Assembly (NCBI GenBank): GCA_964016885.1
Contig: OZ024740.1
Coordinates: 69,378,001-69,442,000, forward strand
Length of the DNA: 64,000 nt
Origin: Eledone cirrhosa
Lineage: Eukaryota
Direction of reading: 5' to 3'
In this document: positions 2,000 to 64,000 of the stretch, piece by piece
How the letters are laid out: each line of letters opens with the position of its first letter
How positions within the stretch are numbered: position 1 is the first letter of the stretch
The notes under the pieces: model-generated
Told to the model about the DNA's origin: nothing
Databases searched by the model: none
Seen by the model: only the letters and a program-made list of their open reading frames with translations
Translations under genes and position numbers: made by a program

Positions 2000-3150
2000 A
2001 GTGTGTTGGAGTTAAACACCCTCTTCGTATTATATAAATGACAGTAGAGGTATAGCTCAATGTAATTAAACAGGGCCGAAGAATTATGAAAATAAACCAA
2101 AGAAGCCTTCAATACATCAAAAGTCTTTATTAGCCAACAATGTTTCGTCCTTTTAAGGACTCATCAGGGCAATTAAAGCTATAAGAAACACTATCAGCCA
2201 ATACAAGCCAAAAACTGAGAAGAATATGGAGTGTACATACATTAAAGAATAGGAAAATTATCGGGTAAAAATTATCAAGTAAAAATTGCTAAGGAAGTGA
2301 ATAACATTTTGAACCATATTACAAATATAGTCCAATGCAAAAACTAAAGCTAAACAAAGGTGGTGATATAGAGCGGGAATTATTGTACTATATATAATAT
2401 AATATAATATAATATAATATAATATAATTGATAATGATAATAATAATAATAATATTAAAAGGCCCAATATACATATATATATATATACATATGTACACAT
2501 ATATACATATATATCAATACACATTTCCATCAATACAAGCACAAACTAACCCTTATTAAGAGTTTAAATATAAATAAGAATCATAAGAATAATAAGAATA
2601 AAAATAAAAATAAAAATAAAAATAAAAATATAATACATATATTATTTACAGTATAAAATGAAGAAGAAATGATTAAAAGTAAACATATAATATATAATAA
2701 ACTATATAATTATATAATAGATAATCTCCGGTTAATTTGCACAAACAATATAAATGTTACAATAACCCTATAATAACAATATTATAATATAATGGCATAT
2801 AACTTAACAAATCATATAGAGTTACAGACCGGGTGAGAAAAAATATTGTACAGAACTAAATAATGTTGGAAAAATTATGTTGGAAAAATATCAAAACCAT
2901 TGCAAGAAAACAGATGGAGGTCACATTTCTCTACAATTGATGTAAATAAATATTATCCAAACATTACAAAAATTATAAAAATATAAACATATTACAGAAT
3001 TTACAAAATTTAACATAACATAATGGTACATTTAATAATCGGTAAATAATAAAGATCAGTAGAACGTTTACAAAGAGTTGAAGGATATAAAAATGTCAAT
3101 ATAAAATATTGAACATAATATAATATACATAATTACGGAAGTTTGTGTAA
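2000..3150 (-). mobile_element. PLE 3' UTR/pseudo-LTR fragment in inverted orientation
   Basis: Contains a canonical HHR (2133-2170), AATAAA and a CATTGAGC tail motif on the minus strand; abuts the 5'-truncated Naiad at ~3155. Confidence 0.6.
2133..2170 (-). ncRNA. Type I minimal hammerhead ribozyme
   Basis: Minus strand GCC-CTGATGA-GTCC-TTAAAA-GGAC-GAAA-CATTG-TT-GGC: intact core, 4-bp stem II, stem I GCC/GGC, GUU site. Confidence 0.85.
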
Positions 3151-3154
3151 TCCT

Positions 3155-5273
3155 TTTCCTATCGAAGTGGAAGGCCCTCCATCTAATCCGACACCAACAA
3201 CGATAAGTTTGGTTTCAAATCCTACAAAAACCTCACACCTCCGCACACCACCTCACAGTCTGTGGCCTACTCTTTGGGATTCTTTCGAGCAGGACTTAAT
3301 GAAAATGATAACCGGAATCAAATTTACAAACGGAAGGAAAAACGAACTTCAACGAGATATTAAAACTCTACTCGACAACCTAAGGAATACCAAAGGAATT
3401 ATCATAAAGGCAGACAAAACATCGAATCTATACACCCTGGATGTAGAAACATATAATAATTTTATACGTAAGGAATTACATAGGAAGTACAAAAAAACAA
3501 ACGCAACTACACTAACCAACATTAATAACGCAGCATGTGATATTGTTAAGAAACCGAAAATCGACGACAGAACGGTACCCCTATCTCCGGCTACACCGAC
3601 TTTTAATCTGAAGGACCATAAGGATAACTTCGATACCAACCCTAAAATTAGATTAATATGTCTTTCAAATGTAGGTAGAATCAGTAAGTACATATTAGAT
3701 CGTATTATCCCCCAAGTTAAGGCTAAGGTAGATATTAAATTATGGGGTAATACTCAACAGGCAATAAGATGGTTCAATAACATTAGTGACAAAAATAAAT
3801 CTTCTTTTATTCAATTCGATATAGATGAATACTATTCCTCTATTTCACCCGAAACCCTGCATAAGGCCCTCTCATTCGCTAAGACTAACCCGGACCTCAC
3901 AAATGAGGAAATTAATATTATACTTGAAGCTAGACGCACAGTAGTGCATTTTGAAAATAGTTATTGGGTCCGCAGAGATAGACCCTCGGAATTCGACATT
4001 ACGATGGTTTCTAATGATTCGGCGGAGGTCACGGATCTGGTTTGGATCTATATAGCCCACAGACTCCAGAGCGAATTTACGGACCTCCACGGCGGAATAT
4101 ACCGCGACGATACACTTCTATTAGTCAAGAATATGAACAAACAAAACCTAGAAAGGCGACGTAAAAACATTAGGAAACTTTTCTTAGAACTAGGGCTTAA
4201 TATTACCTTCGAACACAATTTTAAGGTGGTCAACTTCTTGGATGTCACCTTCAACCTTAATAACGGTAATATAGAGCCATTTCACACACTTAATGAAAAT
4301 CTCAAGTACGTTAATGTAAAATCGAACCATCCCCATTCCATTATTAAATCTATCTTTAAAAATATATCCATAAGGATCTCCCGATTGTCGTCTAATTTGC
4401 AGACTTTCAACGAGCATGCTGAATATTATAATGACGCACTTAGAAAATGTGGTTACTGCGATAAAATAGAATATCTAGACGATAACCACATAAGTACTAT
4501 GAATAAAACACATCTAAGTCGAACTAGTATTGCACCACACACACACATCAATAGGCATACTAATAGGTGCAAACCAGCAAATAGAGTCAGACGTATAACC
4601 CCGTGTACAATATTTCTATTAGCACTAAGATTATCTCACAATTCTATACACTAATCAATAAACACTTTACAACTTCACATAAATACTATAAAATCTTTAA
4701 CTCGCGCACCATTAGACTCTCATACTCCACTGCACCTAATATAGAACAACTAATTAAAAAACTCAACTCAGCAATACTAAATAAGGACATCCCTAATGAC
4801 TCAGCGCACCACCATAGCAACATACAACGCACTAACACGCAACTACAACCCCACCAACCTATCCAGGATACTACTGCAAAACATTAAAATAATTGTAACT
4901 GCACCAAACCAGGTACGTGCCCACTGAATAACCAGTGCCTAGCACGCAATATTGTCTACCGATGTACAATAAATTCCGGAACCAACAAATGGCATTACGT
5001 CGGATGTACCGCAACTTCTTTCAAAGCTCGCCTATACCAACATCGATCTTCGATCAGACACGAGAAAATGCGCTCCGTAACAACGCTCGCCGATAAAGCC
5101 TGGCAGCTCCGAAAGAAGAATCAAGCATTCTCCCTTGATTGGCAAATTATTGCTGCTGCGCCTGCATATAAGCAAAATCATCGATTCTGTAAATTATGCA
5201 ATATGGAGATATACTGCATTTTAACGTCGGTAAACAAACTTTTGAACAGCAAAATTGAACGTTCAGTGTACTG
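3155..5273 (+). pseudogene. Naiad-type PLE RT + GIY-YIG ORF, 5'-truncated, with frameshifts and a stop
   Basis: KWKALH, KFGF, ADKTSNLY, LKDHK, FIQFDIDEYY, FDITM, YRDD, VNFLDV and SNHP in ORF 3143-4654. Continues in 4603-4887 (KIFNSRTIRLSYS), then TAA at 4885, then CNCTKPGTCPLNNQC, IVYRC...HYVGCT, CKLCNME, LLNSKIE. Confidence 0.92.
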
Positions 5274-5699
5274 TATTTTTAAATGTAATGTTACCTTTTT
5301 ACACCACCGTTTGCAAATTTCTGTTTTATATGTTTATACACAAGATATGGATTTCTATAATAATAGTACTAAACACTATTTTCTGGACCCCTTTAGAAAT
5401 AACCTGCTACTATAATAGCCCCAATAACTTGTATGTATTTCTGTACCACTTTGACCCCTTTAACTAAATTTTGTCCAAACAACACCACTGGAAGAATTTA
5501 CTTCCCCCACCAACCCTAACACGCCTCATTAAGCTAACTGCTGCCAAAACATTCTCTCCTTACAATCTCTACTAGTCTGACAGTCTTAAATCCTAGGACT
5601 CCCATCCCCTTACTCACTTCCCTCTTCCCCCATCTCTTCCTACCTCCTTCTTTCTCTTTTATCTAGTGTATAAAATATTTTCATATCATTCCAATACAA

Positions 5700-8322: not shown

Positions 8323-8670
8323 ATATAAGATCAAAAGATGGTTAAAAGAGTTCCATGTATTTTATTATGCGCATTTCAAAAACAGATATCATCATGGGAT
8401 GATATTTGCGTTCTCTTATGTTGATTTAACACATCACTTCTCGCAAGTGTTTTTTAAGCTTCATATCATATCTCCCTATTTTATCTGATGAGAAGGCAAA
8501 TATCATTCCATGATGATATTTGTTTTTGAAATGCGCATAATAAAATACATGGAACTATTTTAACCATCTTTTGATCTTATATTATTTATACTCCAGTCCT
8601 ATAAACTGTGGAGTGCTACTTATCCGATATTTGCATTGCTTTATTGTGCTACAATAAAACTCACCTCCTA
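8323..8670 (+). mobile_element. Very short PLE-type insertion: inverted partial pLTR + pLTR + tail
   Basis: ~8323-8409 is the reverse complement of ~8496-8582; HHR in the right arm; microsatellites on both sides. Confidence 0.8.
8477..8547 (+). ncRNA. Type I hammerhead ribozyme
   Basis: TATTTTAT-CTGATGA-GAAGGCAAATATCAT-TCCATG-ATGATATTTGTTTTT-GAAA-TGCGCA-TA-ATAAAATA; 8-bp stem I, 15-bp stem II including GU pairs, palindromic stem III. Confidence 0.88.
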
Positions 8671-8861: not shown

Positions 8862-9369
8862 AAGTGGAATAGAATGAAACGAAATTTCATTTCTCACTCT
8901 TAGTACGGCACTTACTTAAATGTAAGTATGTATGTATGTATACGTACATACATATATGTATACGGACGTGCAGTAGTATGTATATATATACATACGGCCG
9001 ACTGAACTCACTCGATATGCAAATTAGGCTGCTCAGCCGTTAATATGCATAAGGACAGTATATACTTTCAGACGTTCAACCATCTGGCAGGAAGGTATAC
9101 GATGCTGACGATAGCTAGTAAGCTTGAAACTAGTACATCGTTCCTGTGTAAGTGTTGAACAAAAAGGTGAAGTGGTTGCCTAAACACTGTACGGCGTAAT
9201 TCGGGCTGTTTATTTGTTTACAAACAAACAAACCGAGCATTATAATAAATGTTCGGTAAACCGATACGTGCATATATATATATATATGTGTGCATGTATG
9301 TATATATATAAATACTACTGTACGTCTGTATACATATATGTATGAACGTATACATACATACATACTTAC

Positions 9370-14886: not shown

Positions 14887-17878
14887 ACATGGTTGACTAT
14901 TCGGATGACAATTTGGTGAGCGGAGTGGTCAACCTTGATAGAACCCATAGACAAGGACCCGGTTACTGGAAGCTAAACTTGTCCTTACCGACAAACAAAG
15001 CTTACAGTAAGCGGATTAGTTATCTAGTTAAGCAGCGGTTGACAGGGGCAATTGTCAACAGCAGGTGGTGGGCCTCTCTCAAGAGAGAAATTAGAATAGA
15101 ATCGATAGGTTTTAGTCAGGAATTAGCATCAGATAGGAATAGAACTGAAAAGGAATTGATAGTTAGAGTATAAGAGGCGATTAGGAGGGGCAACGTGGCC
15201 GGCGTGCTGGCGTCAAGAACGGCCCTAGACCAGTTCTTTGACGCGAAGCACGTGGGCTGTGTTGTCAGGAGTAATATACCTGCTCTGGGTAAACAGGGAG
15301 CCAAAGCTGTTGGCTGAGCCCGAGTGACAGAGATAAACGTGGAAACAAGTCCACGATTCGGTATTTGAAGGACCAGGATGGACGCGTGATCCTTGAACCT
15401 AAGCAGATGTGCGCGGCCTTTCAACGGCGCTTTGCACGACTGTTCGGGAGGGGCGGCGCTCCGAGTGAGGGCATGGATTTCGGTCCATACCTCGACGGTC
15501 TTCTGCGGCTCTCGGACGGGGAGGCTAAGTCCTGCGAAAGGCCGATTTCAGCCGCTGAAAGGAAAGCGCTGAGCGTATGCGGCAAACGCAAATCTCCCGG
15601 TATCGATGCTCTACCATACGAATTGTATGTAGCCTTGCCGGACTTGTTCTCCGATCTCCTCGAGGTGGTCTAATGCAACTGGCAACAGAACGGGAGAATT
15701 CCCAGTTCTGTGACCAAGGGCGTAGTCACGCTGGTGAGGAAGGACAAGAACAAGGGATATAACATAGATAACTTCAGGCCCATAACTCTGCTAAACCTAG
15801 AGTTAAAGATTTTGGCCAAGGTGTTAGCGAAGAGGTTGGCGCTTGTCGTCGGGAACCTGGTGGCAGAAGCGCAGACATGCGCAATCCCGTCCAGGTCCAT
15901 ACACGACAACTTCCACCTCATGCGATACATCATGGAGAGGGTTGGGAACGAACCCGGCTTTGGTGGGACCCTGATCAACTTGGATCAATCTAAGGCGTTC
16001 GATAGGGTCGACCATCGGTACCTGGATGCATTGCTCGCGGCGGCAGGCTTCGGACCCGTTTTCAGGGGCTGGATTGCTGCAATGCACAGCAGAAACACCT
16101 GCTCGAGTGTCAAGGTGACCGGCTACCTCTCGGAGCCATTCCAAATCGCGCGATCCATCCGACAGGGATGCCCTCTCTCCTCCCTTCTGTATGTGCTGGC
16201 TCTCGAGCCGCTACTGCGGGAGTTGGAGCTGTTGCAGGGAATCCCCTTAGAAACGGGATTGCGGAAAGCGGTGTCGGCCTACGCCGATGGCGTGACAGTG
16301 CGCCTCGGAAATCGGGCAGATCGGCACCTTACTGGAGGAATACGAAAGGTTTACAGGAGCCAAGCTGAACCGGGAACAGTCCGTCGGTTTGCAACTCGGA
16401 ACGTGGAGAGGCAAACCGATACCCTCCGACGGCGTCGTCCGTCGCTGGACGGAGTGACCGGTGAAGCTGCTCGGGGTCTGGTTCGGACCGGACCTCCAGG
16501 TGGAGAAAAACTGGGATGAGGTAACGGGAAGGGCGTTTGCACTCGCCCAGAAGTGGGCCGAGTGCAAACTATCCCTGAAAGGTCGAGCGGAGGTGGCGAA
16601 CACTTATATAGCGTCCGCAATCTACCACCGCTTGACCGTCGTGCCTTGCCCAGCGAAAACGCTCGCCAAAATGTAGCGCGCGCTCTTCCGATTCCTTTGG
16701 AAGAAGGGGCCCCTTTGGTGAGAAGATCCATCTGCTGTCAACACCCTTCGAACGGAGGGGTGGGAATGCCGTGGCTGACGATGCGTAGCCACGCATTAAG
16801 GCTACGGCACCTCCAGGTATTCCTCACCGGTCAGCTGGTGTGGGCCCCTTTTGTGAGGCGAGCTTTTCCGAGACTCGTCTCACTCACCGAGCTGCAATTC
16901 TGGTTCAAGCAAAGACCGAGAAATGTGGGCGACTGGCACATTGGATGTGCCCAGGTGCTCACGGCCCTCTGGCAAGCGGATCCGGCAATCAGTGGAGACT
17001 CAACCTCAACATTCTATAGACTGTTGGTGCGCAGCAAGTGCGACGATGCTCTCGGAGAGGCTCTGAGCATGGAGGAAGACGAGCTAGCCAGTCTGTTCGG
17101 TAGGACGTTTGGCCCGGGACCGATGGACAACTTCCAAAAGTCCCTGGCTTGGCAGTGCTACCGAGGAGCTCTACCCGTTCGGGACAAGCTCTACAGACAC
17201 GGGCGCCTGGGTAGGGACCCCTCGAAAAAGATCTGTCCGAGATGCGTGCGGGATGAGGAAACCGTCGCGCACGCAATCGTACACTGCCCGTGCGTTGCTG
17301 ACCTGTGGGGCTATGTGGAACGACTACTGTCGCGGGTGGGACCAATCCGGTTGACCACCGAGTACATTGTCACTATCACACCGCCTCCCCCTTCAAAAAC
17401 GAAGGAGATGCGGTTTTACTCTGTGTGATAGCTATGGCGAAAGAGGTTGTATGGTGGACGAGGTTGGAAGAGCTGAGGTCAGACACTTTTCTCTCCGGCC
17501 AACAGCTGGTCCTTTTTTTCAAGTGCCATTTTAGAAGAAGGATCAGAATGGAGAGAGAGGTGCTCTACCCCAGCAAGTTTTATGAAAGGTGGTTGAAAGT
17601 GGCGAGAATGGCCCGAGTGAATGGGCCTTCTCTCTATATCCGCCTGTAGGTGAGAGAGGAGAAGAAGGGAACACCCAATCTTTGTGCTCCTGAGGGGGAG
17701 GGTTGCACATTTTTTTCGCGGGTGTGCGCGACCCACGTCAACGCCCCCTCCCTTTTGAGGACTTCGATTGTTGAATTTGATTTGTTATATATTTTTACAC
17801 GTCCCTTGAAATATATGTAAACTCCCCTCTTGTATTTGTCCCAATCTTTGATGCCCTGGTGGCAAATAAATAGAAAGT
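14887..17878 (+). mobile_element. Tx1/L1-clade LINE ORF2, 5'-truncated, several stops and frameshifts
   Basis: GPGYWKLN (end of APE endonuclease), KSPGIDALPYELY, NFRPITLLNLELKILAKVLAKRL, DQSKAFDRVDH, RQGCPLS, AYADG, zinc finger CPRC...HAIVHC; stop at 17649, AATAAA at ~17865, then (TCTA)n. Confidence 0.92.
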
Positions 17879-18788: not shown

Positions 18789-19607
18789 ATAAAAACGCCC
18801 CTCCCCTCAATAAGAAATGGACCACCAATAAAAAAACCGATCCTCCCTAAAATAAAAAAGGATCCCCCCAAATAAAAAACGGATCCCCCAAATTAAAAAA
18901 ACCGCCCCGCCCCCAAATCTAAAACGGATGATCCGATAAAATACGGATCCTCACAAATAAAATAACTGACTCCCCCAAATAAGAAACGGACCCTCCAAAT
19001 AAAAAACTGCCCCCGCCCCCACCTCAAATAAAAAAACCGACCCCAAGATAAAAACGGATCCCACCAAAATAAAAACGGATCATCCCCAAATGAAAAACGG
19101 ATACCCCAAATAAAAAACGGATCCCCCCTAATAAAAAATGGATCTCCCAAATAAAGAACGGACCACCCCCAATAAAAGTCGGATCCTGCCAAATATAAAA
19201 CGCCCCCCATTCCCAATAAAAAACGCATTAGCCAATAAAATACAGACCCCCTCTCCTAATAAAAAACGGGCCCATCCCCCCAATAAAAAACGCGCCCACC
19301 CCCCAAATAAAGAACGGATCCCTCCCAAATAAAAAACAGATCCCCGCTGAATAAAAAATCGTCCCCCACAAAAAACAAAAATTGTAAAAAGGACCCACCC
19401 CAATAAAAACGGATCCCCCAATTAAAAAAGAGATGCCCCAAAGAAAAAACAGAACCCCCTCCACCACCCACTCCACCCAATAAAACAACGGATCTCTCAT
19501 AAATAAAAATGGATTCCCGCCCAAATAAAAAACGGACCCCCCCCAATAAAAAATGGATCTCTCCCAATAAAAAATGACGCCCCCCCCCCCCCTTCTCCAA
19601 TAAAAAC
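18789..19607. repeat. Minisatellite, ~21-23-bp unit (consensus approx. CCCCAAATAAAAAACGGATC)
   Basis: More than 30 degenerate tandem copies visible. Confidence 0.9.
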
Positions 19608-19694
19608 TATTTCGCTCTACATGGCTGAATACCATAAATGTAATCTGAGTTTTTCGAATATTGATAATGATACTAGATTTATTTGAATATGGCA

Positions 19695-20047
19695 AAGTCG
19701 GCCATTAATCGCTCGTATACATGAAACTGACTGGCCAGTCTGCCTATATGCAAATCTGGCTGATCAGTGGATCCTTTAATATGCAGATCTGACTGATCAG
19801 CCAATCTGCTAATATGCAAATTAGGCTGATGAGTCGCTGTATATTTTAGAAAATATATATTTTCACTAGCTCTGACGGTTGGCCGGTCAACAGTGAACTG
19901 TACGGATGAAGGGAAATACCCAGAAACATTAGTATCTGCAGTTCGGTTTACAGCAAGAATGAGGGGCTTATTCTACTGGTATGGCTTTAAAAATAAGGGT
20001 TGTTTGCATAATTGCACACGAATCGAATATTATTATTAATATTCGAT
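19695..20047 (+). mobile_element. Diverged retrozyme-like element (family C) with triplicated octamer and degenerate HHR
   Basis: ATGCAAAT/ATGCAGAT/ATGCAAAT at 19748, 19781 and 19814; palindrome GAAAATATATATTTTC; GAACTGTA-CGGATGA-AGGG-AAATA-CCCA-GAAA-CATTAG-TA-TC-TGCAGTTC at 19895-19944; hairpin TCGAATATT/AATATTCGA. Confidence 0.65.
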
Positions 20048-25749: not shown

Positions 25750-26262
25750 CAGAATTAACCATAAGGAAGATCATATTAGAGTACCTTACAACAATAAAGG
25801 AAACCATAGGGGTATTTACACAGAGGCAAAATTAAATTGTTAATGAAGCTAAACATCTAGTATTCAAAGGATCTATTACAACCTCTTAACTGCAGTTTTC
25901 ACAGACTAAAACGCCATAAAAATGTTCTATCTCAATTAAAAGAGATAGTATAACTCCGCCAGAAAGCTTGTCTCATCATCGCAGAGGTATTTTCTGTTCC
26001 TAAAATTAAGACAGATATCTTCCCACCACGAAATAAAATCAAATCCACCATGACAAGTCTTCTGCCAGAGATATATCCTTTAATTGAGATAGAAAATTAC
26101 TGTGACTTTTCAGTCTATGTAAACTGCAGTTAAGAAGTTAATAGATTTGTTGACACCTAGATGTTTAGCTTGTTTAACAATTTAATTTTGCCTCTGGAAA
26201 AAATGCACGTATGGTTTCCTTTTTTTTTATGTATTCTATGATCTTCCCTATAGTTAATTCTG
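25750..26262. mobile_element. Palindromic MITE/foldback element (~510 bp, diverged arms)
   Basis: CAGAATTAAC...GGAAACCATA...CAGAGGCAAAATTAAATTGTTAA...TTAACTGCAGTTT...TTCTATCTCAATTAAA mirrored in reverse complement in 26050-26262. Confidence 0.8.
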
Positions 26263-29179: not shown

Positions 29180-31720
29180 ATGTTGAGCAAGCAGGAACTC
29201 AGGATTTCACTTAAGTCTATACCTATCCCGGACAGGAAGACATACCTCAAACTCCTAATACAGAGTGTCAACTCTTTCATCCGAAGAATACGATGGAAAG
29301 CCTTTCCACTTCGACCATGCGGGTGCTGCTGACGCCGGATATACAGCAAACAGATATGGATTTACCACCTGCAAGAACCCTCCACACGACATCCTGGTGG
29401 ACACTTTTGAGAAAGATCTATTTAACTTCGTCAGGAGCATTAAATTCAAAAAGCATTATAGACACAAGAATAATTTCCTCACAAAATTAGCAATAACATT
29501 AAACAAATTTAAAGATAGCCACATCTTACATGTTATATCTGACAAAACTAAAATTCTATACACCATGACTCCTGAAACTTACAACTCTTTCCTTCTTAAG
29601 GAACTCAATAAACACTATAAAACAACTATACCCTCCAGTGTAAACTTACTTAACCGAAAAGCCCAGGCTTTGGTTAAGGACTTGCATCTGGATAGATTTA
29701 CCCACCCTTATGTACCTACAACCCCAAGGTTTTCTCTCAAGGATTACAAGCCAAACTTTATAGAGAACCCATCTATTAGACTTATAAGCCCAACCACATC
29801 CGACTTCAGTGGTATCAGTAAGAACATCCTTGATAGGATAATCCCTGGGCTACGAGATGATATCACCTACAAGCTGTGGTCCAACACCGGCCAAGTCATT
29901 ATATGGTTCTCCGATCTAAGGTCCAAGAAATCTATGAGGTTCATCCAATTTTACATTGACAGCTATTACGCTTCAATAACCCCGGAACTGCTCAACAAAG
30001 CATTAACCCTAGCCAGCACCAACTCTGACATAACCAATAATGAGATTGACGTCATACTTATGACTAGGCAGATCATCATTGAATTCAACGGAACACTCTG
30101 GACTAGAAAAGACAGAGCAGACAACTTTGACATCACGATGGGCTCAAGTGACTCCGCGTAAATCACTGATTTAGTTGGAATTTACCTATTACATATCATC
30201 AGAGCCGAAATGCAACCCTTGCAAGGCGGAATATACAGGGACGACGCCCTATTTGCAGTCCACAATTGCACTAATCGGGGCATTGATTTGCTAAAAAAAA
30301 ACAATTACATAGATTCTTTAAAAATAACGGTCTCTCTATCACCATCGAGCCGAACCATAAAGTAGTAAACTTCCTAGAAGTTACCCTGGATCTTAACAAT
30401 AACCTATATTACCCTTACCAAAAACCAGGTGAAATACTAACATATATTAGCCCACACTCTAACCACCCACCGGCAGTCATCAGAGCAGTAATCAAATCTA
30501 TCTCGTATAGGATCTCCATGCTATCAGCAAATGAGGAGATATTTATAAACCATGCGGCATATTATAATAAGGCTCTTTCTGAATCTGGTTATGAACAGTC
30601 CATTAACTACATACCTAAATGCCATAACACAGCAACTCACCACAGCCATAATAAACTTAACACTAGAACTAGAAATACCTTAGCAAATATCCAGATTCGC
30701 TGGAATTTTAGCAGTAACAGCACTTATACAGGGAACCTTAATGGTGGCAGTGGCCTGCTTCCCACTCCAAGTAGCAAACTAAAAATCAACTCTAGAATAT
30801 GAATGAGCAATGGGATGGCAAATAATAAATGCCCAGGTAATAATAACCCTATGAAGGCCCCTACCAACTCCACTAGAACCCCTAGAGGGAATAGGCCTAG
30901 AAATATCACCTGGCTTAACACCCCATTCTCATCTAATCTAGCCACTTATATCCCTAAACGCTTCTTCTATATCCTATCTAAACTTCCCCCCCCCCCCCAA
31001 CCATAGATATTACAAACTCTTTAATAAAAATAACATTAAAATCTCATTCTCCACACCACCTAACTTAGCAAGCTACATCGCATTCAGTAACCATCATAAA
31101 CTAAGACAGTATAACGCCCACACCGCGCTACCACCACCCCCATCAAATACACAACGCCACTACTCCAATACTTACTCTAGTAGCACACCTCCCCCATCTA
31201 ATCCTTCTAGCACTGACCAACCGCTTAGGTTAAACAACCATACTCTCACTAACTGCAGACGTAACTGCAAATGCCGTTACACTAATGCATGCCCACTAAA
31301 TGGACATTGCCTGACACCCAACATAGTCTATAGGTGCACGGTTAAAACAGCTTCGCATACCAACTCATATATCGGGTCTACATCTAACCCTTTTAAGGTA
31401 CGCTATAACGCGCACTCTTTTTCCTTCCGAGACCCTAACAACAGATGTTCGACATCTCTAGCTAGGCTCATTAAAAACCTTAAATTAACCAACATTGAAC
31501 ACTCACTAACATGGGATATCTTGTCTAGGGCCCAACCGTTCAATGGACGAAGAAAATCTTGTAACCTCTGTCTTACCGAAGCATATTACATAACTCTATC
31601 ACGACCTCTACCGATTAACGATAATCGGAGGTAAATATTAGCTGTCGACATCGAAGGACTAATTCCTTCGCTAACAGAATATTTGACCCAACATAGTCAT
31701 CTTGTCCCATCTTTACTTGT
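29180..31720 (+). pseudogene. Naiad PLE RT/GIY-YIG ORF, disrupted
   Basis: MLSKQELRISLKSIPIP...FIRRIRWKAF, frameshift, YGFTTCKNPP...FDITMGSSDSA, TAA at 30159, YRDD, SNHPP, RNITWLNTPF, CKCRYTNACPLNGHC, YIGSTSNPFKVRY, CNLCLTE, SCRHR. Confidence 0.92.
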
Positions 31721-35296: not shown

Positions 35297-35380
<84 letters not shown>

Positions 35381-35414
35381 AGATTTGAATGGATACAGTT
35401 TAGTTGAAAGGAAT

Positions 35415-35531
35415 TTATTGACACGTGTTTCTATAACAGTTACATAACCTAAAACAGCTATCTACAAACTTTTAGTTATGCAGACATTCAATATTTCAAT
35501 GTTATTATTTACTGTCATTTCATCAGAATAA
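35415..35531 (-). ncRNA. Hammerhead ribozyme with extended stem II (inverted pLTR copy)
   Basis: Reverse complement of 38829-38945. Confidence 0.85.
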
Positions 35532-35662
35532 TATTACTGAGGACCTATTTAGTTTTTATAGAGAATATTAGGAGGGAGGGGTGAAGTTGTTAGAAGAATA
35601 GTTGAAGGAGTGGTTTTTCGATAGCAGTGAGAATTCTTGGTGGCAGTGAGTAAAGAAGCCGT

Positions 35663-37894
35663 ATGAACTCAACATTAGAAAGTGGTGTAAACAACAAATT
35701 CGGTTTTAGGACTTATAAAAACCCACCCACCAACCCACTATTAGATGCATTTGAGCAGGACCTTATGAACTTAATCCTTAAAATTAAATTCAAAGGACGC
35801 AACACCAACAGCAAATTACAGAAAGATATAAAAAAACTACTGGACGACCTTAAAAACACCAAAGGAATTGTAGTAAAAGCGGACAAAACATCAAACCTGT
35901 ACACTATGGATTGCACTACATACAACAACTTCATTCGAAAAGAATTACATAAAAAATATAGAAAAACGAGTGAAGTAACCCTTAAGCACATCAATGATGA
36001 GGCATGCGAAATAGTGAAAAATCTCGGAATCGAAGATAGGACAGGACCACTCTTACCGGCGGTACCCACCTTCAATCTTAAGGACCACAAGGTAAACTTT
36101 GATAATGACCCTAAAATTAGATTAATCTGCCCCTCTAAATCAGATATAGGTAAAATAAGCAAATATATCTTAGATAGAATCATCCCCCAAATTAAGGCTA
36201 AGATTAACATTAAACTCTGGGGGAAGACCCAAGAAGCAATAAGATGGTTTAATAGCATTAGCAATAAGAATAAATCTAAGTTTATCCAGTTTGATATCGA
36301 TGAATATTACTCATCGATATCACCTGAAACTTTGAATAGAGCCATTAAGTTTGCTAAGGATAACTCTGACCTTACAAACGATGAAATTAAGATTATATTA
36401 GAAGCTAGGAAAACTATAGTCAAATTTGAGAACAGTTATTGGGTACGTAAAGATAGACCCTCTAACTTTGACATAACAATGGGCTCTAACGATTCGGCGG
36501 AAATAACTGATATTGTGGGGTTATTTATCGCCATTAGACTCCAGGAAAAATTCAGCAATCTCCACGGCGGAACATACCGCGACGATGTTCTCCTCCTAGC
36601 TAAAAACCTTAATAACCAAAAACTAGAAAAACTACGCAAAGATATAAGAAAACTACTACTCGAAATAGGACTAACTATAACATATGAATACAACCTTAAA
36701 GTAGTTAACTTCCTGGATGTCACACTCAATTTAAACTCTGGTTTGATTAAACCGTTTCATAAATTGAATGAAAATCTCAAATACGTAAATGTTGGGTCTA
36801 ACCACCCCATCTCTATAATTAAATCTATCCCTAAAAATATTTCCCTTAGAATCTCGGGTCTATCTTCTAACATACAAGTTTTTAAGGAACACGCCGAGTA
36901 CTACGATAACGCCCTTAGTAAAGCAGGCTACCTCAACAAAATAGAGTACATAGATGGGAACAATCAAAACACCCAAAATAAATCCCACATAGGTAGATAT
37001 AATAACACAACACCAAACCACACTTACTACCATAGTATGCACACCAGTAAACCAACAAACAAAACTAATAGAAAGCGATGCAAAGAGTACTTATGGTATA
37101 TCCCCGAATACAATAGCTCCATTAGTACAAATTTACCAGTACTCTTCTTTAAAATAATTAAAAGACATTTTCCCACATCACACAAATACCACAAAATCCT
37201 AAACCCTACCACTATAAGACTGTCATACTCTACAGCGTTAAACCTTGAACAACACATAAAAAAGATCAATACTAGAAGGTTAAACGAAAACACTAAGAAC
37301 TTAAGTACAAAGAACACAAAAAAAACAGTAGACAATACACTACAGAACATAAATAAACCACACCTAAGTTCGTCCGCAATACTACTCCAGAGAAAACCCA
37401 ACGTACACAACTGTAACTGCACCTATCCTGACAACTGCCCCCTCGGCAATAACTGCCTGGAAAAAAATATTATTTATAAGTGTACCATTAAATCCGGAGG
37501 CAACGAGTGGTATTACGTGGGATCAACGGCAACATCGTTTAAATCTCGATTGTATAGGCATTCTTACTCAATAAAACACCAGAGCCAAAGAAATGTAACA
37601 ACTTTAGCAGAAAAAGCTTGGACGCTCAGGGATAGCGACCAAAAGTTTACCCTAAAATGGGAAAAATTAGCTAAAACCCAAAGCTTTTCCAGGAGCCAAA
37701 ATTTCTGCAAATTGTGTAATCTTGAGATTTATTACATAATCACACACAAGAAGAAACTGCTGAATAACAGAATTGAACGAACATTATTCTGCCGTCACAG
37801 AACTAAAACCCTTTTTCCCACTACAAGCCGAATATTACATAAAAGAGGGACATCCCCCAACTATATAAACCTTAATCTAGTTAGAAAAATATAA
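35663..37894 (+). CDS. Penelope-like (Naiad-type) reverse transcriptase with Cys-rich linker and GIY-YIG endonuclease, 743 aa, N-terminally truncated
   Basis: Uninterrupted ORF: ADKTSNLY, LKDHK, FIQFDIDEYY, ITMGSNDSAE, YRDD, VNFLDV, SNHP, CNCTYPDNCPLGNNC, IIYKC...YYVGSTATSFKSR, CKLCNLE, LLNNRIE...FCRH. Confidence 0.95.
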   Translation: MNSTLESGVNNKFGFRTYKNPPTNPLLDAFEQDLMNLILKIKFKGRNTNSKLQKDIKKLLDDLKNTKGIVVKADKTSNLYTMDCTTYNNFIRKELHKKYRKTSEVTLKHINDEACEIVKNLGIEDRTGPLLPAVPTFNLKDHKVNFDNDPKIRLICPSKSDIGKISKYILDRIIPQIKAKINIKLWGKTQEAIRWFNSISNKNKSKFIQFDIDEYYSSISPETLNRAIKFAKDNSDLTNDEIKIILEARKTIVKFENSYWVRKDRPSNFDITMGSNDSAEITDIVGLFIAIRLQEKFSNLHGGTYRDDVLLLAKNLNNQKLEKLRKDIRKLLLEIGLTITYEYNLKVVNFLDVTLNLNSGLIKPFHKLNENLKYVNVGSNHPISIIKSIPKNISLRISGLSSNIQVFKEHAEYYDNALSKAGYLNKIEYIDGNNQNTQNKSHIGRYNNTTPNHTYYHSMHTSKPTNKTNRKRCKEYLWYIPEYNSSISTNLPVLFFKIIKRHFPTSHKYHKILNPTTIRLSYSTALNLEQHIKKINTRRLNENTKNLSTKNTKKTVDNTLQNINKPHLSSSAILLQRKPNVHNCNCTYPDNCPLGNNCLEKNIIYKCTIKSGGNEWYYVGSTATSFKSRLYRHSYSIKHQSQRNVTTLAEKAWTLRDSDQKFTLKWEKLAKTQSFSRSQNFCKLCNLEIYYIITHKKKLLNNRIERTLFCRHRTKTLFPTTSRILHKRGTSPNYINLNLVRKI

Positions 37895-38246: not shown

Positions 38247-38828
38247 GTATATATATGTATATATGTATGTATATATGTGTATATGGATGTGTAAGTATGT
38301 GTATGTGTGTACACATGGACTAGAGTATGTATGTATATATGTGTGTGTCTATACGTGTGTATATAAAGATAAGTTGAGTATGAAAATGTATACACATGAG
38401 CGCGTATGTATGTACATGAATACATGTGTGTATATATATGTGTATGCATGTGTATATATATGTAAGTATGAATATGTGAATTGTGAGTATATGTATTTTG
38501 TAGAGGTGTGCAAATATATTTGTGTGTGAATGCGTGGGTGTAAGGATACGTACACTTGAAAGAAAAATTTAAGTCTGAATGTTAATTAAGTGCAAACACA
38601 AAACCAACCACGCATATCTTTACTATCTCTAATCCTTCTATAGATTTAGAAAAATAACCAATAATATATTCTATAAAAAATGTCAAAACAACAGATGGGA
38701 ATCTAATTACTCACTGCCACCAAGAATTCTCACTGCTATCGAAAAACCACTCCTTCAACTATTCTTCTAACAACTTCACCCCTCCCTCCTAATATTCTCT
38801 ATAAAAACTAAATAGGTCCTCACTAATA

Positions 38829-38945
38829 TTATTCTGATGAAATGACAGTAAATAATAACATTGAAATATTGAATGTCTGCATAACTAAAAGTTTGTAGAT
38901 AGCTGTTTTAGGTTATGTAACTGTTATAGAAACACGTGTCAATAA
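38829..38945 (+). ncRNA. Hammerhead ribozyme with 88-nt extended stem II
   Basis: TTATT-CTGATGA-[A-ATGACAGT...ACTGTTAT-A]-GAAA-CACGTG-TC-AATAA; canonical core, GUC site, palindromic stem III. Confidence 0.88.
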
Positions 38946-39129
38946 ATTCCTTTCAACTAAACTGTATCCATTCAAATCTTTCTATTTTTCTCCGGATTAC
39001 TTTTGGAACTACAACTGGAACCGTTGAGCAAACTCTACGTGAGCTGATAATCTACTGTGTGTAATATTTATATTACAACACGACGGAAAATACTGTATAT
39101 ATATATATATATATATATATACATACATG

Positions 39130-42317: not shown

Positions 42318-42775
42318 TACGTGCGCGTGCGTGCGCGTATGTGTGCGTGTGTGTCTGTCTGCCTGTAGCACCACCAGAAAGATGTGTTTCTCCTGCAGGT
42401 GGCATTTAACAAAATCAAATTTTATCTGAAGATAGCGTTCTCACAACAAATGCATCAATTACATCTTGAATGCATGGGAGAACCGTAGAAATAATTATAT
42501 AAAATAATCGATTTGTGTAACACAGATATGCAACGAAAGAACTTTGATAGACTATATATATATTTATATCTGCATTTTTAACCGGTGGTCAATCAATGAT
42601 AAATATTGATTGCCAAATAAATTTACTATGGAGATATAAAAGATACAGAAGCGAAAACCAAGTGAAAGCCAAGTGAGTGTGTTCTGTTATTATTTCTGGC
42701 AATATTATAACAATATGACCCTCCCCAAGTATAACAATATGTATATATATATAAATTCATATATATATGAATATA

Positions 42776-44000
42776 CGATAGTCGACTGAAAAATGCATAA
42801 GCTGAACAAGGTCCTCTCAGGGAATCTGATCAAATGTGGTTTATTTTTCAATATACTCACCCTGGCGGTCCACACATTTCTTCCATCGGTGTTGCAGTGC
42901 TTGGATCCCATTGGTGATGAAGCTTTCATCCTGTTGGGCAAAAAGTCAACAAAAGCAGATATAACGTCATCATCATTGCGATACTGTTTCCTAGCCAAAT
43001 GTTCTGTTATGTTGGGTAACAGATGATAGTCAGATGGGATCAAATCAGGAGAATAGGCAAGGTGATCAAGCAGTTCAATTCACGATCATGTACAGAATCT
43101 ATTGAAACCAAGTATGTGTGTGCTGGAGCATTGTACTGACCAAACAAGTCACATTCGTCAGTTTTCCTGTGCGTTTGGACTTGATAGCCGTTCGTAACTG
43201 CCCTACCAAGTTGATAGATTACCCTCCATTGATGGTGTGCCTCCTTCGAAAATAATCAATAAACTCATTACCTTTTGCATCCCTTACTTTCAGATGAAAT
43301 GATCCGAACATTCCTTGGAGTAGGTGCAGAGGGGAATTTCCACTGCATGGATTGTCTCTATTTCTCTGGCTGAACGTGATGAAACCGTCACTCATACTGG
43401 GTTAGGAAACCTGTAAGGAACCCAGCTGGATATGCCTAAAAAAAAAGTCAAATTTTCCTGCGATGTGATCAGTTTGGTGTCCTTTTTGATCAGGTGTCGG
43501 AAGACGTGGCATCCTCGTCATGGTACTTTCATTGAGCAGAATATTCTCAACTCTTTCACGGGATAATGTAATAAAATTTCCATTTATCGCTGTCATCCAT
43601 CACCTTGTGATGAACACTATCAATATTTTCCTCGTTGCTGTCAGCTGCCGAACGTCCAGACCCTGGCTCATCTGCAAGACTCTTCCTTCCCCTCTTAAAT
43701 TCAGTTTCCTTCGTATTACACTGTTGATAAATCTGGAATTCCTTAATATGGCATCCATGTTACCACGAATGTTCTTAGGGTCTAAACTCTTTTTCTCTAG
43801 CTAATTCAAAACACCACGATGCTAAATTTTGTCCATTTTCAACAGAAGAAAGTACTAGTTACTTGAAGTCTTCTTTCAACTGTCAGATGTCAGTTTACCT
43901 GAAAAGAAACAATGTAGTTATTGATAAGAAGAGGTGAAATTAGTGAATGCAAGATTTCACAGCTTTATCATCAGCTTATGAAAATCTCAGCCAAAACTCG
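42776..44000 (-). mobile_element. Mariner (Tc1/mariner) transposon relic, ~1.2 kb
   Basis: AYSPDLIPSDYHL and RWKKCVDRQGEYIEK* on the minus strand; degenerate TIRs CGA.....CTGA....CATAAGCTGA at both ends, TA flanks. Confidence 0.88.
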
Positions 44001-44734: not shown

Positions 44735-45594
44735 TAGTAAAAGGAAAAGAAAATGCTGACAAATTTTTCACAGTAAAAAAAATAGTTTAATTAGGAATAA
44801 GTATAAATTAGTAATAAGTGTTGGTTAGTATTCAGTTTTAGTTTTAAGTTTTTACCGGTTGCTCATATCTAATGCTTTTCAAAAATAATTTTGAGATAGA
44901 GCGCCTGTGATGTTTGCTCTAATCTGACCAGTTTTGGAAATTCTTCCTGTTTTATGTGAAAAAAGTGGCTCCAGAGGTATTAAGATTTGGTTGGTTGTTG
45001 AATGTCACGTGAATGAGTACTATAAATTTTGCGCCAATTCGTGTTGCAAAAATTCTTGTAGTCAAAACAATTTTGATTGGTCGGTAGAGGTCACGTGAAT
45101 TTTAAAAATTGATTTTGCGCCAAATGTAGGTTTATGGAAGAGTGTCCTTTTTCGCCTAATTGAGAAGTCACTGAAAAATAAGTCTTTTAAGACAAATATG
45201 TGTGTGTGTAGTAAAGAGGTTCATTGTTGTGATAATGGTCAGTAGGGATGTGTGTGTGAATTGCAGTCATGTTGAAAGGTCAACAGTTCAGGTGTCTATT
45301 AAGACGAATATATGTGTGTGTGTGTGTGTGTGTAGCAGAGTGGTTCATGGTAGAGGGATTCGGTCAGTAGGAATGTGTCTGTACGTGTGTGGGGGATATT
45401 TTAACATGTTGAAAGATATTTTTCAGCTCTTCTCTTATACGGAGATGTGTGTGTGTGTCTGTGTGTGTATAACTGTTTGTATGTTAGTGTACGCGTATGT
45501 ATATGTGTGTGTGTGTATATGTGTGTATGTGTGTGTGTGTGTGTGGATAGACCAGTATTTTTGTGATACTGGTACACAAAAATACTGGTCCATC

Positions 45595-45628
<34 letters not shown>

Positions 45629-46372
45629 TACACATACACACGCGTACACTAACATACAAACAGACATATACACACACACACACTTCTCCGTATAAGACAA
45701 GAGCTGAAAAATATCTTTCAACATCTTAAAATATCCCCCACACACGTACAGACACATTCCTACTGACCGACTCCCTCTACCACGAACCACTATTTGTCTT
45801 AATAGACACCTGAACTGTTGACTTTTAAACATGACTGCAATTCACACACACATCCCTACTGACCATTATCACAACAAATGAACCACTTTACTACACACAT
45901 ACACACACACACATATTTGTCTTAAAAGACTTATTTAGTCACATCTCAATCAGGCGAAAAAGGACACTCTTCCACAAACCTACATTTGGCGCAAAATCAA
46001 TTTTTAAAATTCACGTGACCTCTACCGACCATTCAAAATTGTTTTGACTACAAGAATTTTTGCAACACGAATTGGCGCAAAATTTATAGTACTCATTCAC
46101 GTGACATTCAACAACAAACGAAATCTTAATACCTCTGGAGCCACTTTTTTCACATAAAATAGGAAGAATTTCCAAAACTGGTCAGATTAGAGCAAACATC
46201 ACAGGCGCTCTATCTCAAAATTATTTTTGAAAAGCATTAGATATGCGCAAACGGTAAAAACTTAAAACTAAAACTGAATATTAACCAATACTTATTACTA
46301 ATTTATACTTATTCCTAATTAAACTATTTTTCACTGGGAAAAATTTGTCAGCACTTTCTTGTCCTTTTACTA
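44735..46372. mobile_element. 1.64-kb near-perfect palindrome (foldback-like non-autonomous element)
   Basis: 44735-45565 mirrors 45575-46372 around a 9-nt spacer; termini TAGTAAAAGGA / TCCTTTTACTA. Confidence 0.92.
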
Positions 46373-50733: not shown

Positions 50734-51301
50734 CTTAATTCGGGATGTTTGTTTACAAACAAACCGAGCATTATAATAAATGGTCGGTAAATCCATACGT
50801 AGATATATATATATGTGTGCATGTATGTATATATATATACATACTACTGTAAGTCTGTATACATATATGTATATATGTATACATACTTATATTTAAGTAA
50901 CAGCCGTACTAAGTGTGAGAAATGAAATTTCGTTTCATTTTTTTCCGCTTATCGTTTTCTGTGCGCCCGGCCGATTAACTCACTCGATATGCAAATTAGG
51001 CTGCTCAGCCGTTAATATGCATAAGGAAAGTATATACTTTCAGACGTTCAATCATCTGGCAGGAAGGTATACGGTGCTGACGATAGCTAATAAGCTTGAA
51101 ACTAGTACATCGTTCCTTTGTCAGTGTTGAACAAAAGGGCAACGATGGTTGTTAAACACTGTCCGGCTTAATACGGGATGTTTGTTTACAAACAAACCGA
51201 CCATTATAATAAATGTTCGGTAAATCCATACGTACATATATATATATATGTGTGCATTGCATGATGTATACATAGTACTGTACGTCTGTATACACGTATA
51301 C

Positions 51302-51791: not shown

Positions 51792-51935
51792 ATTAAAAAG
51801 AAAAAATAGGAGTTAAAAACTAAGGATTTAAACTTAAAATCAAATGCGTGGAGTAAATTTTCACCCATCCATCTTGCTCAAAATTTGTTGGTAAGAGAAG
51901 GTAGTAGTAATTGTTTCTCTTCACAGAAGAAAGTA

Positions 51936-51980
<45 letters not shown>

Positions 51981-52234
51981 GTGAGAGAGAGATAGTCACA
52001 GAGATTCAGGGAGAGAGAGAGAGGGAGAGAGAGAAAGAAATATTTTGATGTTGTAGACGCTCTTGTGTTCTTTATCATATATATATATAAATATATACTA
52101 CTTTCTTCTGTGAAGAAAAACAAGTACTACTACCTCCTCTTACCAACAAATTTTGAGCAAGAAGGATGGGAGAAAATTTACTCCACGCAATTGATTTTAA
52201 GTTTAAATCCAAAATTTTTAACTCCTATTTATTC

Positions 52235-52242
<8 letters not shown>
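51792..52242. repeat. Inverted repeat, ~150-bp arms around microsatellites
   Basis: 51792-51940 mirrors 52093-52242; arms carry TTTTGAGCAA, similar to the PLE tail motif. Confidence 0.85.
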
Positions 52243-55262: not shown

Positions 55263-55685
55263 TCTTATATACTTCCCCAGGCATCTAAAATCAGCAATAA
55301 TACTGACGATGCTTAAAAATGCCGAAACGTCTATGGATTTATCAATATTTGCCAAAGATCAAAATCACTTAGTACCTCATTCTATATATAATTGTATTTA
55401 TTTAAATTTCGAATAAATTATTTCTCTTACATCTTACCAAAGATAATCATTATGAGCGACATGGTAAAAGCGTCATATCTTTTTATTGGCTTATAACATA
55501 TGTTGTGGTGGTGCAAAACCCAATCGCCAAATAGTGCATTCTAATTCGAAATTAATTCTACTGGATAATTATAGATTACCTCATTATTACTGAAAGAAAG
55601 TGACGATAAGAATTAGAAACGTGTTATCCAATGTTGGCAAATGAGAAACAGACAGAACAGCAACATCGTCATCCTTATCATCATC

Positions 55686-55826: not shown

Positions 55827-56128
55827 TCTTGTTTTTGCTGTGGTTGTTCGTGATCAGTACTGATTGAAGGGCAAAGGCGTTTAATATAGTGGAGTGCGAT
55901 CTGGTGGAGTGTTCAGTTCTGCTCATTCTAGCAGACAAAGCGTCCGCGTAGAAAAACATCATCATACGCTCTCGCTCTGATGGATTGGAAATATGCATGA
56001 TTTTATTGGACTAAAAACAGGATCACTCGCATACCTTATCTTGAGTTTTAAGACGTCCATAGACGTTTCGGCATCTTTAAGCATCGTCAATATTATTGCT
56101 CATTTTAGATGCCTGGGGAAGTATATAA
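55263..56128. repeat. Convergent pair of ~75-bp segments with degenerate HHR-like motif
   Basis: 55263-55337 mirrors 56056-56128; (C/T)TGACGA-TGCTTAAA(A/G)ATGCC-GAAA-CGTC-TA. Confidence 0.65.
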
Positions 56129-62972: not shown

Positions 62973-63072
<100 letters not shown>

Positions 63073-63362
63073 CAAATAACGAAACGAAATTAAATTTCGT
63101 TTCGTTTGTAACTCACTTTTGTATGACTGACGCTTAAACAATTAAGTTAAAAATGTACATCTACATATGCATACTGAAATACTAGTCTGTATATGAATAC
63201 ACACACGTATACATATGTAGGTGTACCAAGTCTTTCACTGGTCGCTTTACAGTGAGCGGCCCAGCTATTCTGTACGTAAACACACAGACAAACCGGTTTT
63301 TAGAGTCATACTGGTTTTCGGGGGGAACACCTTCCCTCCATTCTCCAGAAAGCCAGACAAGG

Positions 63363-63407
63363 AATATTGGACTAGTTTCGTTGTTGTTACAACTCATCAG
63401 CAATATT
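63363..63407 (-). ncRNA. Type I minimal hammerhead ribozyme (unit 1)
   Basis: AATATTG-CTGATGA-GTTGT-AACA-ACAAC-GAAA-CTAG-TC-CAATATT; 7-bp stem I, 5-bp stem II, GUC site. Confidence 0.93.
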
Positions 63408-63492
63408 TACCTATCTACCGGCCTTTCTGGAGAATTGTAAAAGCACATATCGTTATATGCTTTTTCTATGAAAATTAGTAGTGGGCAGACTA

Positions 63493-63500
63493 ATTTGCAT
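63493..63500 (-). promoter_or_regulatory. Octamer (ATGCAAAT) conserved upstream of retrozyme HHRs
   Basis: Also at 63961, 9017, 50989, 19748 and 19814; the HHR-proximal copy is 88-100 nt upstream of the HHR core wherever both are seen; function inferred. Confidence 0.5.
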
Positions 63501-63830
63501 AGAGTGTGAGTACGCACCGGTTCAGCGGAGACGATAAAAACAAATAACGAAACGAAATTAAATTTCGTTTCGTTTGTAACTCACTTTTGTATGACTGACG
63601 CTTAAACAATTAAGTTAAAAATGTACATCTACATATGCATACTGAAATACTAGTGTGTATATGAATACACACACGTATACATATGTAGGTGTACCAAGTC
63701 TTTCACTGGTCGCTTTACAGTGAGCGGCCCAGCTATTCTGTATGTAAACACACAGACAAACCGGTTTTTAGAGTCATACTGGTTTTCGGGGGGAACACCT
63801 TCCCTCCATTCTCCAGAAAGCCAGACAAGG

Positions 63831-63875
63831 AATATTGGACTAGTTTCGTTGTTGTTACAACTCATCAGCAATATT
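63831..63875 (-). ncRNA. Type I minimal hammerhead ribozyme (unit 2)
   Basis: Identical to 63363-63407, 468 bp further along. Confidence 0.93.
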
Positions 63876-64000
63876 TACCTATCTACCGGCCTTTCTGGAG
63901 AATTGTAAAAGCACATATCGTTATATGCTTTTTCTATGAAAATTAGTAGTGGGCAGACTAATTTGCATAGAGTGTGAGTACGCACCGGTTCAGCGGAGAC

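Follow-up and report, generated by a model that had tools for sequence, protein, structure and literature searches.

An octamer-bearing inverted-repeat module in retrozyme-like elements of Eledone cirrhosa: a candidate internal promoter element

Three families of retrozyme-like elements (A, B, and C) in a 64,000-nucleotide stretch of the Eledone cirrhosa genome (contig OZ024740.1, positions 69,378,001 to 69,442,000; hereafter the window) carry a ~35-bp inverted repeat with an octamer as its left arm. Consistent evidence from few related copies (three families, five hammerhead positions) suggests that the octamer motif is real and constrained. On the basis of its sequence and of analogy with known systems, the left arm is best read as a POU-bound internal element of a Pol II promoter or enhancer, a reading that we hold to be somewhat probable. 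The original prediction was an snRNA-type promoter in every monomer, parallel to newt satellite 2. An Oct/SNAPc promoter of this type appears doubtful; we assign slightly less than half of the favored reading to involvement of SNAPc and a PSE.

Results

Family A is represented by two copies with one hammerhead each. Copy 1 spans 8863..9270 overall and consists of a direct part from 8995 and an inverted upstream piece. Its octamer module is at 9016..9051 on the plus strand (octamer at 9017-9024, right arm TAATATGCAT), and its type I hammerhead is at 9085..9150 on the same strand (core at 9105, GUA triplet, predicted cut after 9135). This hammerhead has no Rfam hammerhead match at E<=5; its full core and stems were recognized by structure search. 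Copy 2 (50734..51234, plus strand) is a 433-bp monomer with a partial repeat, with its module at 50988-51023 and its hammerhead core at 51077-51107. In both A hammerheads, which Rfam misses, stem II has a U.U pair at its base (9112-9125 and 51084-51097). The inverted upstream piece of copy 1 (8863-8995) resembles inverted 5'-truncated copies of Penelope-like elements (PLEs), and by analogy it supports mobilization of this copy by a PLE.

Family B (63066..64000, minus strand) consists of at least two tandem 468-bp monomers in an array that runs to the end of the window. The monomers differ at 2 of 464 compared positions. Their modules are inverted repeats at 63467-63501 and 63935-63969, and their hammerhead cores are at 63400 and 63868, with predicted cuts after 63370 and 63838 (all on the minus strand). 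The B hammerhead matches Rfam HH9 with an E value of 9e-9 and 41 bits, below the gathering score of 52.

Family C is a decayed retrozyme copy at about 19.6-20.05 kb on the plus strand, with a triplicated module in its 5' part. Its degenerate type I hammerhead (19895..19944, plus strand) has kept an 8-bp stem I and GAAAC and has the core CGGATGA. Neither Rfam nor a model built from A and B matches this hammerhead, and judging from its sequence the triplicated copy is probably unable to cleave. A downstream block with two hairpins (19974..20045, plus strand) is homologous to A and B, and the element ends in (TA)n. With the module left out, homology among A, B, and C is still evident (identity 60-66%, z 4.6-8.1, 0/500 shuffles each). 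Outside the module C is homologous to A and B (z 8.1 and 4.6, respectively), which identifies it as a decayed relative. A 21-bp minisatellite composed of an A-run, CGGATC, and a C-run (18831-19608) directly adjoins element C, and its core 10-mer has no other occurrence in the window.

The retrozyme-like character of the elements, as originally proposed, is upheld by the type I hammerheads of A and B, the tandem 468-bp monomers of B, and strong self-pairing. At the gathering threshold Rfam has no matches in the whole window, and neither an snRNA gene nor a tRNA was found in it.

The octamer had been noted three times in family C, and these positions were borne out: ATGCAAAT occurs at 19748 and 19814 and ATGCAGAT at 19781, in steps of 33 bp. 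TRF, which is independent of the octamer search, identified 2.7 copies of a 33-bp repeat (75% matches) at 19746-19835. The single octamers at 9017 (+), 50989 (+), and 63500 (-) are also where they had been placed, with a CTGAYGA core 88, 88, and 100 nt downstream of them, respectively, and a fourth one, absent from the original prediction, is at 63968 (-) in the next B monomer. Every observed monomer that spans the octamer position contains the octamer. Over the whole window the octamer is not enriched (9 occurrences compared to 5.9 +/- 2.5 expected, with at least 9 in 22 of 100 shuffles). Six of the nine exact octamers fall inside families A, B, and C, and the surroundings of the remaining three (8629, 32865, and 46493) are unlike these elements.

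The 33-bp unit of family C is one inverted-repeat module, so its exact spacing follows from tandem duplication. The spacing is as exact as originally described, but it is the product of duplication of the module in a single ribozyme-dead copy, and of all parts of the observation the triplication tells the least. Thirty-three bp is also about three helical turns, and phasing cannot be separated from tandem duplication. Unit 1 (19746..19778, plus strand) has ATGCAAAT at 19748-19755 and no stable hairpin (z +1.2). Unit 2 (19779..19811, plus strand) has ATGCAGAT at 19781-19788 and a hairpin with z -2.9; the G of ATGCAGAT has a C as its counterpart in the inverted arm, ATCTGC. Unit 3 (19812..19848, plus strand) has the invariant word TATGCAAATTAG at 19813-19824 and a weak hairpin (z -1.5), and it is homologous by position to the modules of A and B. 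A perfect 12-bp palindrome at 19729..19740 (plus strand) is probably the inner palindrome of a decayed fourth unit. Comparison of the three units gave 2, 3, and 5 differences in the octamer-bearing first 22 nt and 6, 7, and 8 differences in the last 11 nt (p 0.006-0.008, for a boundary that was picked by eye after inspection). Over half of the last 11 nt differ between units, compared to ~8% between A copies 1 and 2, suggesting an old duplication that has been maintained in a lineage.

No word of at least 7 nt other than TATGCAAATTAG occurs in the monomers of all three families; TATGCAAATTAG lies 88-100 nt upstream of the hammerhead. The longest common word in 2000 shuffles was 9 nt (10 nt or more in 0/2000), under a null that takes no account of common descent. 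A rough correction for descent, by a star-tree approximation at 60-66% identity outside the module, puts the chance of an invariant run of 12 columns at 0.01-0.04 anywhere in 200 columns and at 1e-4 to 4e-4 for one specified position. Within family A, the two copies have 0/40 mismatches in the module and 21/226 elsewhere (Fisher p 0.028). An octamer no more conserved than its flanks had been named as the outcome that would count against the original prediction; comparisons between families, within family A, and among the C units all found it better conserved.

An exact octamer is located upstream, on the same strand, of 4 of the 19 listed hammerhead-like motifs (those with a stable stem II), and these four are the A and B hammerheads. 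The PLE-type motif at 55303 has a one-mismatch octamer at -91 and no module, so such placements can arise by chance. Two matches to the word plus hammerhead core in bacterial or archaeal genomes were rejected as chance matches, because neither folds as a hammerhead.

Second POU-like sites, TAATATGCAT and TAATTTTCAT, had been proposed to follow the octamer. They are present; each is the reverse complement of the first site with 1 mismatch in 10, at a distance of 13-14 nt. Because the second site is the right arm of the same inverted repeat, it provides no independent evidence for POU sites. The left arm TATGCAAATTAG is fixed, whereas the right arm has different uncompensated mismatches in A and B and is mostly lost in the third C unit (10, 11, and 7 of 12 positions in A, B, and the third C unit, respectively). 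A fixed left arm together with family-specific decay of the right arm is the main argument that sequence, not shape, is recognized.

As RNA, the module forms a hairpin with z -2.7 in A, -4.9 in B, and -2.9 in the second C unit; the weak hairpin of the third unit is in another register, and the first unit is unfolded. RNAalifold on A1, A2, B, and the third C unit kept just a 4-bp inner stem, with two-sided changes in 0/4 pairs. The other hairpins, which are downstream, have kept their structure with changed sequence, and two-sided changes occur in 7 of their 23 predicted pairs. An AT-rich palindrome centered on TATATA (19849..19864, plus strand) has its counterpart in A and B in a hairpin of different sequence at the same place. 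The circular monomers fold far more stably than shuffled sequences (z -9.4 for A and -10.3 for B; 0/40 shuffles each), and in both families they are chains of hairpins with helices in the same order. The octamer word is paired in the predicted circular RNA, at 11 of 12 positions with p>=0.74 in both A and B. This pairing and the matched G/C partners in the second C unit are as expected of an RNA stem.

Human snRNA genes have a distal element at -250 to -170 and a PSE at about -70 to -40 (PMC9652321). PSEs differ by taxon (PMC9841428), and none from a mollusc was found in the literature searched. The snRNA-type promoter of the original prediction lacks support here in that no PSE is identifiable in the elements, the best candidate block being an arm of a covarying long-range helix. 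This block, 162-186 nt after the octamer, fits the human spacing and resembles a vertebrate pattern, but it was downgraded as a PSE candidate on account of its long-range pairing with compensatory changes (GTACGGC/GCCGTAC in A1 and GTATGAC/GTCATAC in B, with two compensated changes in 7 bp). Between B and C the block matches at 15/20 positions, a score also reached by chance pairs. Matches in the monomers to the 3'-box consensus (PMC3499247) have two mismatches at best and are inside a hairpin. TATATA was rejected as a TATA box, since it is the center of a palindrome whose arms change together.

Human U1-11, U1-12, and U12 have the variant ATGCAGAT at their POU2F1 peaks (Fig. S9, PMC3499247). 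On the other strand the right arm reads ATGAAAAT in B and ATGCATAT in A; the former is the form at human U1-9, which is described as unoccupied, and the latter is absent from the human octamer list of the same source (PMC3499247). Among invertebrates, the sea-urchin U6 distal element is reported to be an E-box and the schistosome U6 octamer is a prediction by resemblance, so octamer use by invertebrate snRNA genes is doubtful on these sources. One squid is reported to have POU2, 3, 4, and 6, including a POU2 ortholog (PMC4407788), and by analogy an octamer-binding factor probably exists in the host. The sense strand of the monomers contains runs of T: A has T7 and T4, B has T5 and three T4, and C has T5 and two T4. 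Pol III terminates at T-runs. The T7 in A and the T5 in B therefore favor Pol II over Pol III for production of multimers.

The window is AT-rich and microsatellite-rich animal DNA, and several other mobile elements were identified in it. A Penelope-like open frame of 745 aa (35654-37894, +) has a DKT motif and a GIY-YIG-like C-terminus, and its relatives are at most 44% identical. The frame is flanked by 276-bp inverted repeats (35378-35653 and 38707-38982) that are 99.6% identical and contain a loose CTGATGA...GAAA motif. From its sequence, this element is a candidate young Hydra-clade PLE. Two more Hydra-like PLE copies, at 3119-5415 (+) and 29259-31634 (+), have frame breaks. Minimal PLE-type hammerhead motifs are at 1821 (+), 2167 (-), 21829 (+), 55303 (+), and 56090 (-), and the segments 55273-55337 and 56056-56120 are an inverted pair. 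In a BLAST of the masked window, none of A, B, and C matched the sequences that flank the PLE ORFs. A broken LINE-type RT with a zf-RVT domain is located at 15293-17649 (+), with a related copy at ~60.6-61.4 kb; its nearest animal-named match is from Argonauta hians (60% identity). Fold-back (inverted repeat) elements are at 8329-8576, 25750-26262, 44735-46372, and 51794-52240. The frame at 42705-43079 (-), judged by eye, resembles a fragment of a mariner transposase.

Discussion

In the reading that we favor, a host POU-domain factor would bind the left arm, TATGCAAATTAG, as a DNA site, and the arm would serve as the activating component of a Pol II promoter inside the element. Arrays inserted in microsatellites could thereby transcribe themselves into multimers. 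Hammerheads would then cut out monomers, which would be circularized, and the circular monomers might be re-inserted by a Penelope-like reverse transcriptase; these steps are taken from work on other animals. The module would double as one hairpin of the RNA.

The same module could instead be an RNA stem-loop that is read by both sequence and shape, with a Penelope-like RT/endonuclease or a host RNA-binding protein as possible readers and a coincidental match to the octamer. We regard this explanation as possible and, on balance, unlikely. It draws on the report that a PLE protein needs an internal RNA region and starts reverse transcription in a stem-loop (PMC11167929), on the presence of Hydra-type PLEs in the window, and on folding, both of the module hairpin (z -2.7, -4.9, and -2.9 in A, B, and the second C unit) and of the whole circular monomers (z -9.4/-10.3, the helices being ordered alike in both families). 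However, the stem is not conserved as a consensus, as only its 4-bp inner part is kept and 0/4 pairs have two-sided changes, and among the C units the first is unfolded (z +1.2) and the third folds weakly in a different register. The invariant word also holds an exact octamer, in a class of elements with a reported octamer promoter. No exact octamer occurs within 200 nt upstream, on the same strand, of the PLE-type hammerhead motifs of the window, which counts against a PLE signal because such a signal might be expected there. A neutral origin would make the module a leftover, either the least-changed stretch of a common ancestor or a stretch exchanged between families, and the triplication a result of slippage in a dead copy. 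The families are as similar as 60-66% outside the module, the corrected probability of the 12-nt run is only 0.01-0.04, C is represented by a single copy whose core is broken, and the octamer is not enriched window-wide, all of which would suit this explanation. It is nevertheless improbable, as three separate comparisons (across the families, of A1 with A2, and of the C units with each other) agree, and the C units differ at more than half of their last 11 nt compared to ~8% for A1/A2.

Among promoter types, a compact type 3 Pol III promoter, with the octamer near a TATA box as in RPPH1 and a start at the foot of stem I, is a very improbable explanation. Each of the three families does have a TATATA-like box ~40 nt past the octamer, and the octamer of human RPPH1 is reported at -90 to -97 (PMC3499247). 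Against this, the TATA-like box is the center of a palindrome whose arms change together, the ~35 nt between octamer and TATA are filled by the inverted repeat with no recognizable PSE, and sense-strand runs of T7 (A) and T5 (B and C) would be expected to terminate Pol III ahead of the next hammerhead.

Animal retrozymes are reported to be highly transcribed in all tissues examined, which was called atypical for retroelements (PMC7229834). What drives this transcription is not stated in the accessible parts of PMC7229834 or bioRxiv 10.64898/2026.07.22.740005, and no internal promoter or octamer is described in them; the words "octamer" and "Octopus" have 0 occurrences in the main text of PMC7229834. 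Among the matches listed in our literature searches, none dealt with a retrozyme from a cephalopod or described an octamer in a retrozyme of any invertebrate, and subscription journals or supplements could hold such a paper. Retrozymes and the newt internal promoter are thus already known, and the cephalopod octamer module was not found in the literature searched; a promoter role for it is plausible and unproven. An invariant 12-bp word across families that are about 37% diverged offers mutagenesis a precise target, and its arrangement in an inverted repeat permits a clean separation of the roles of DNA site and RNA stem. If the word is a POU site, dispersed copies, possibly thousands, could seed POU-responsive enhancers in the cephalopod genome. 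Should the snRNA-type promoter prove true, capture of the host snRNA promoter machinery would be either ancient or repeatedly evolved in animal retrozymes, and it would explain their high constitutive expression. The POU site would then be a DNA enhancer and an RNA stem at once, and its amplification to three copies would have taken place in family C.

The vertebrate snRNA distal element (an Oct-1 site and a ZNF143/Staf site) shares the exact ATGCAAAT and the variant ATGCAGAT with the elements described here, which differ in having no PSE or start site for reference. The newt promoter, composed of an octamer and a PSE, is said to have been tested experimentally by Coats, Zhang and Epstein in 1994. 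Newt satellite 2 is, like the present elements, a hammerhead-bearing tandem repeat that reportedly has an octamer inside the monomer; unlike it, A, B, and C have the octamer as an arm of an inverted repeat and have no identified PSE. The internal snRNA-type Pol II promoter of newt satellite 2, on which the original prediction drew, was confirmed second-hand (cited in PMC2220036).

Hydra-clade PLE pseudo-LTRs share type I hammerheads and AT-rich microsatellite insertion with these elements, as well as the 5' inverted piece found in A copy 1, whereas the PLE-type hammerhead motifs of the window are without the octamer module. Metazoan non-LTR retrozymes (Cervera and de la Pena, 2020; PMC7229834) are reported to have type I hammerheads in short low-GC tandem repeats, high self-pairing of the monomer, a short palindromic stem III, and co-occurrence with PLEs, all of which are shared here. 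Axolotl HHR_Amex2 is described with the same U.U mismatch at the stem II base as family A (PMC7229834). At 433 and 468 bp, the A and B monomers are longer than the ~170-400 nt given for invertebrates in PMC7229834 and within the 51-972 bp range reported by Li, Clavereau and Pollet (2026; bioRxiv 10.64898/2026.07.22.740005). By their sequence features, A, B, and C fit the non-LTR retrozymes described in these two sources.
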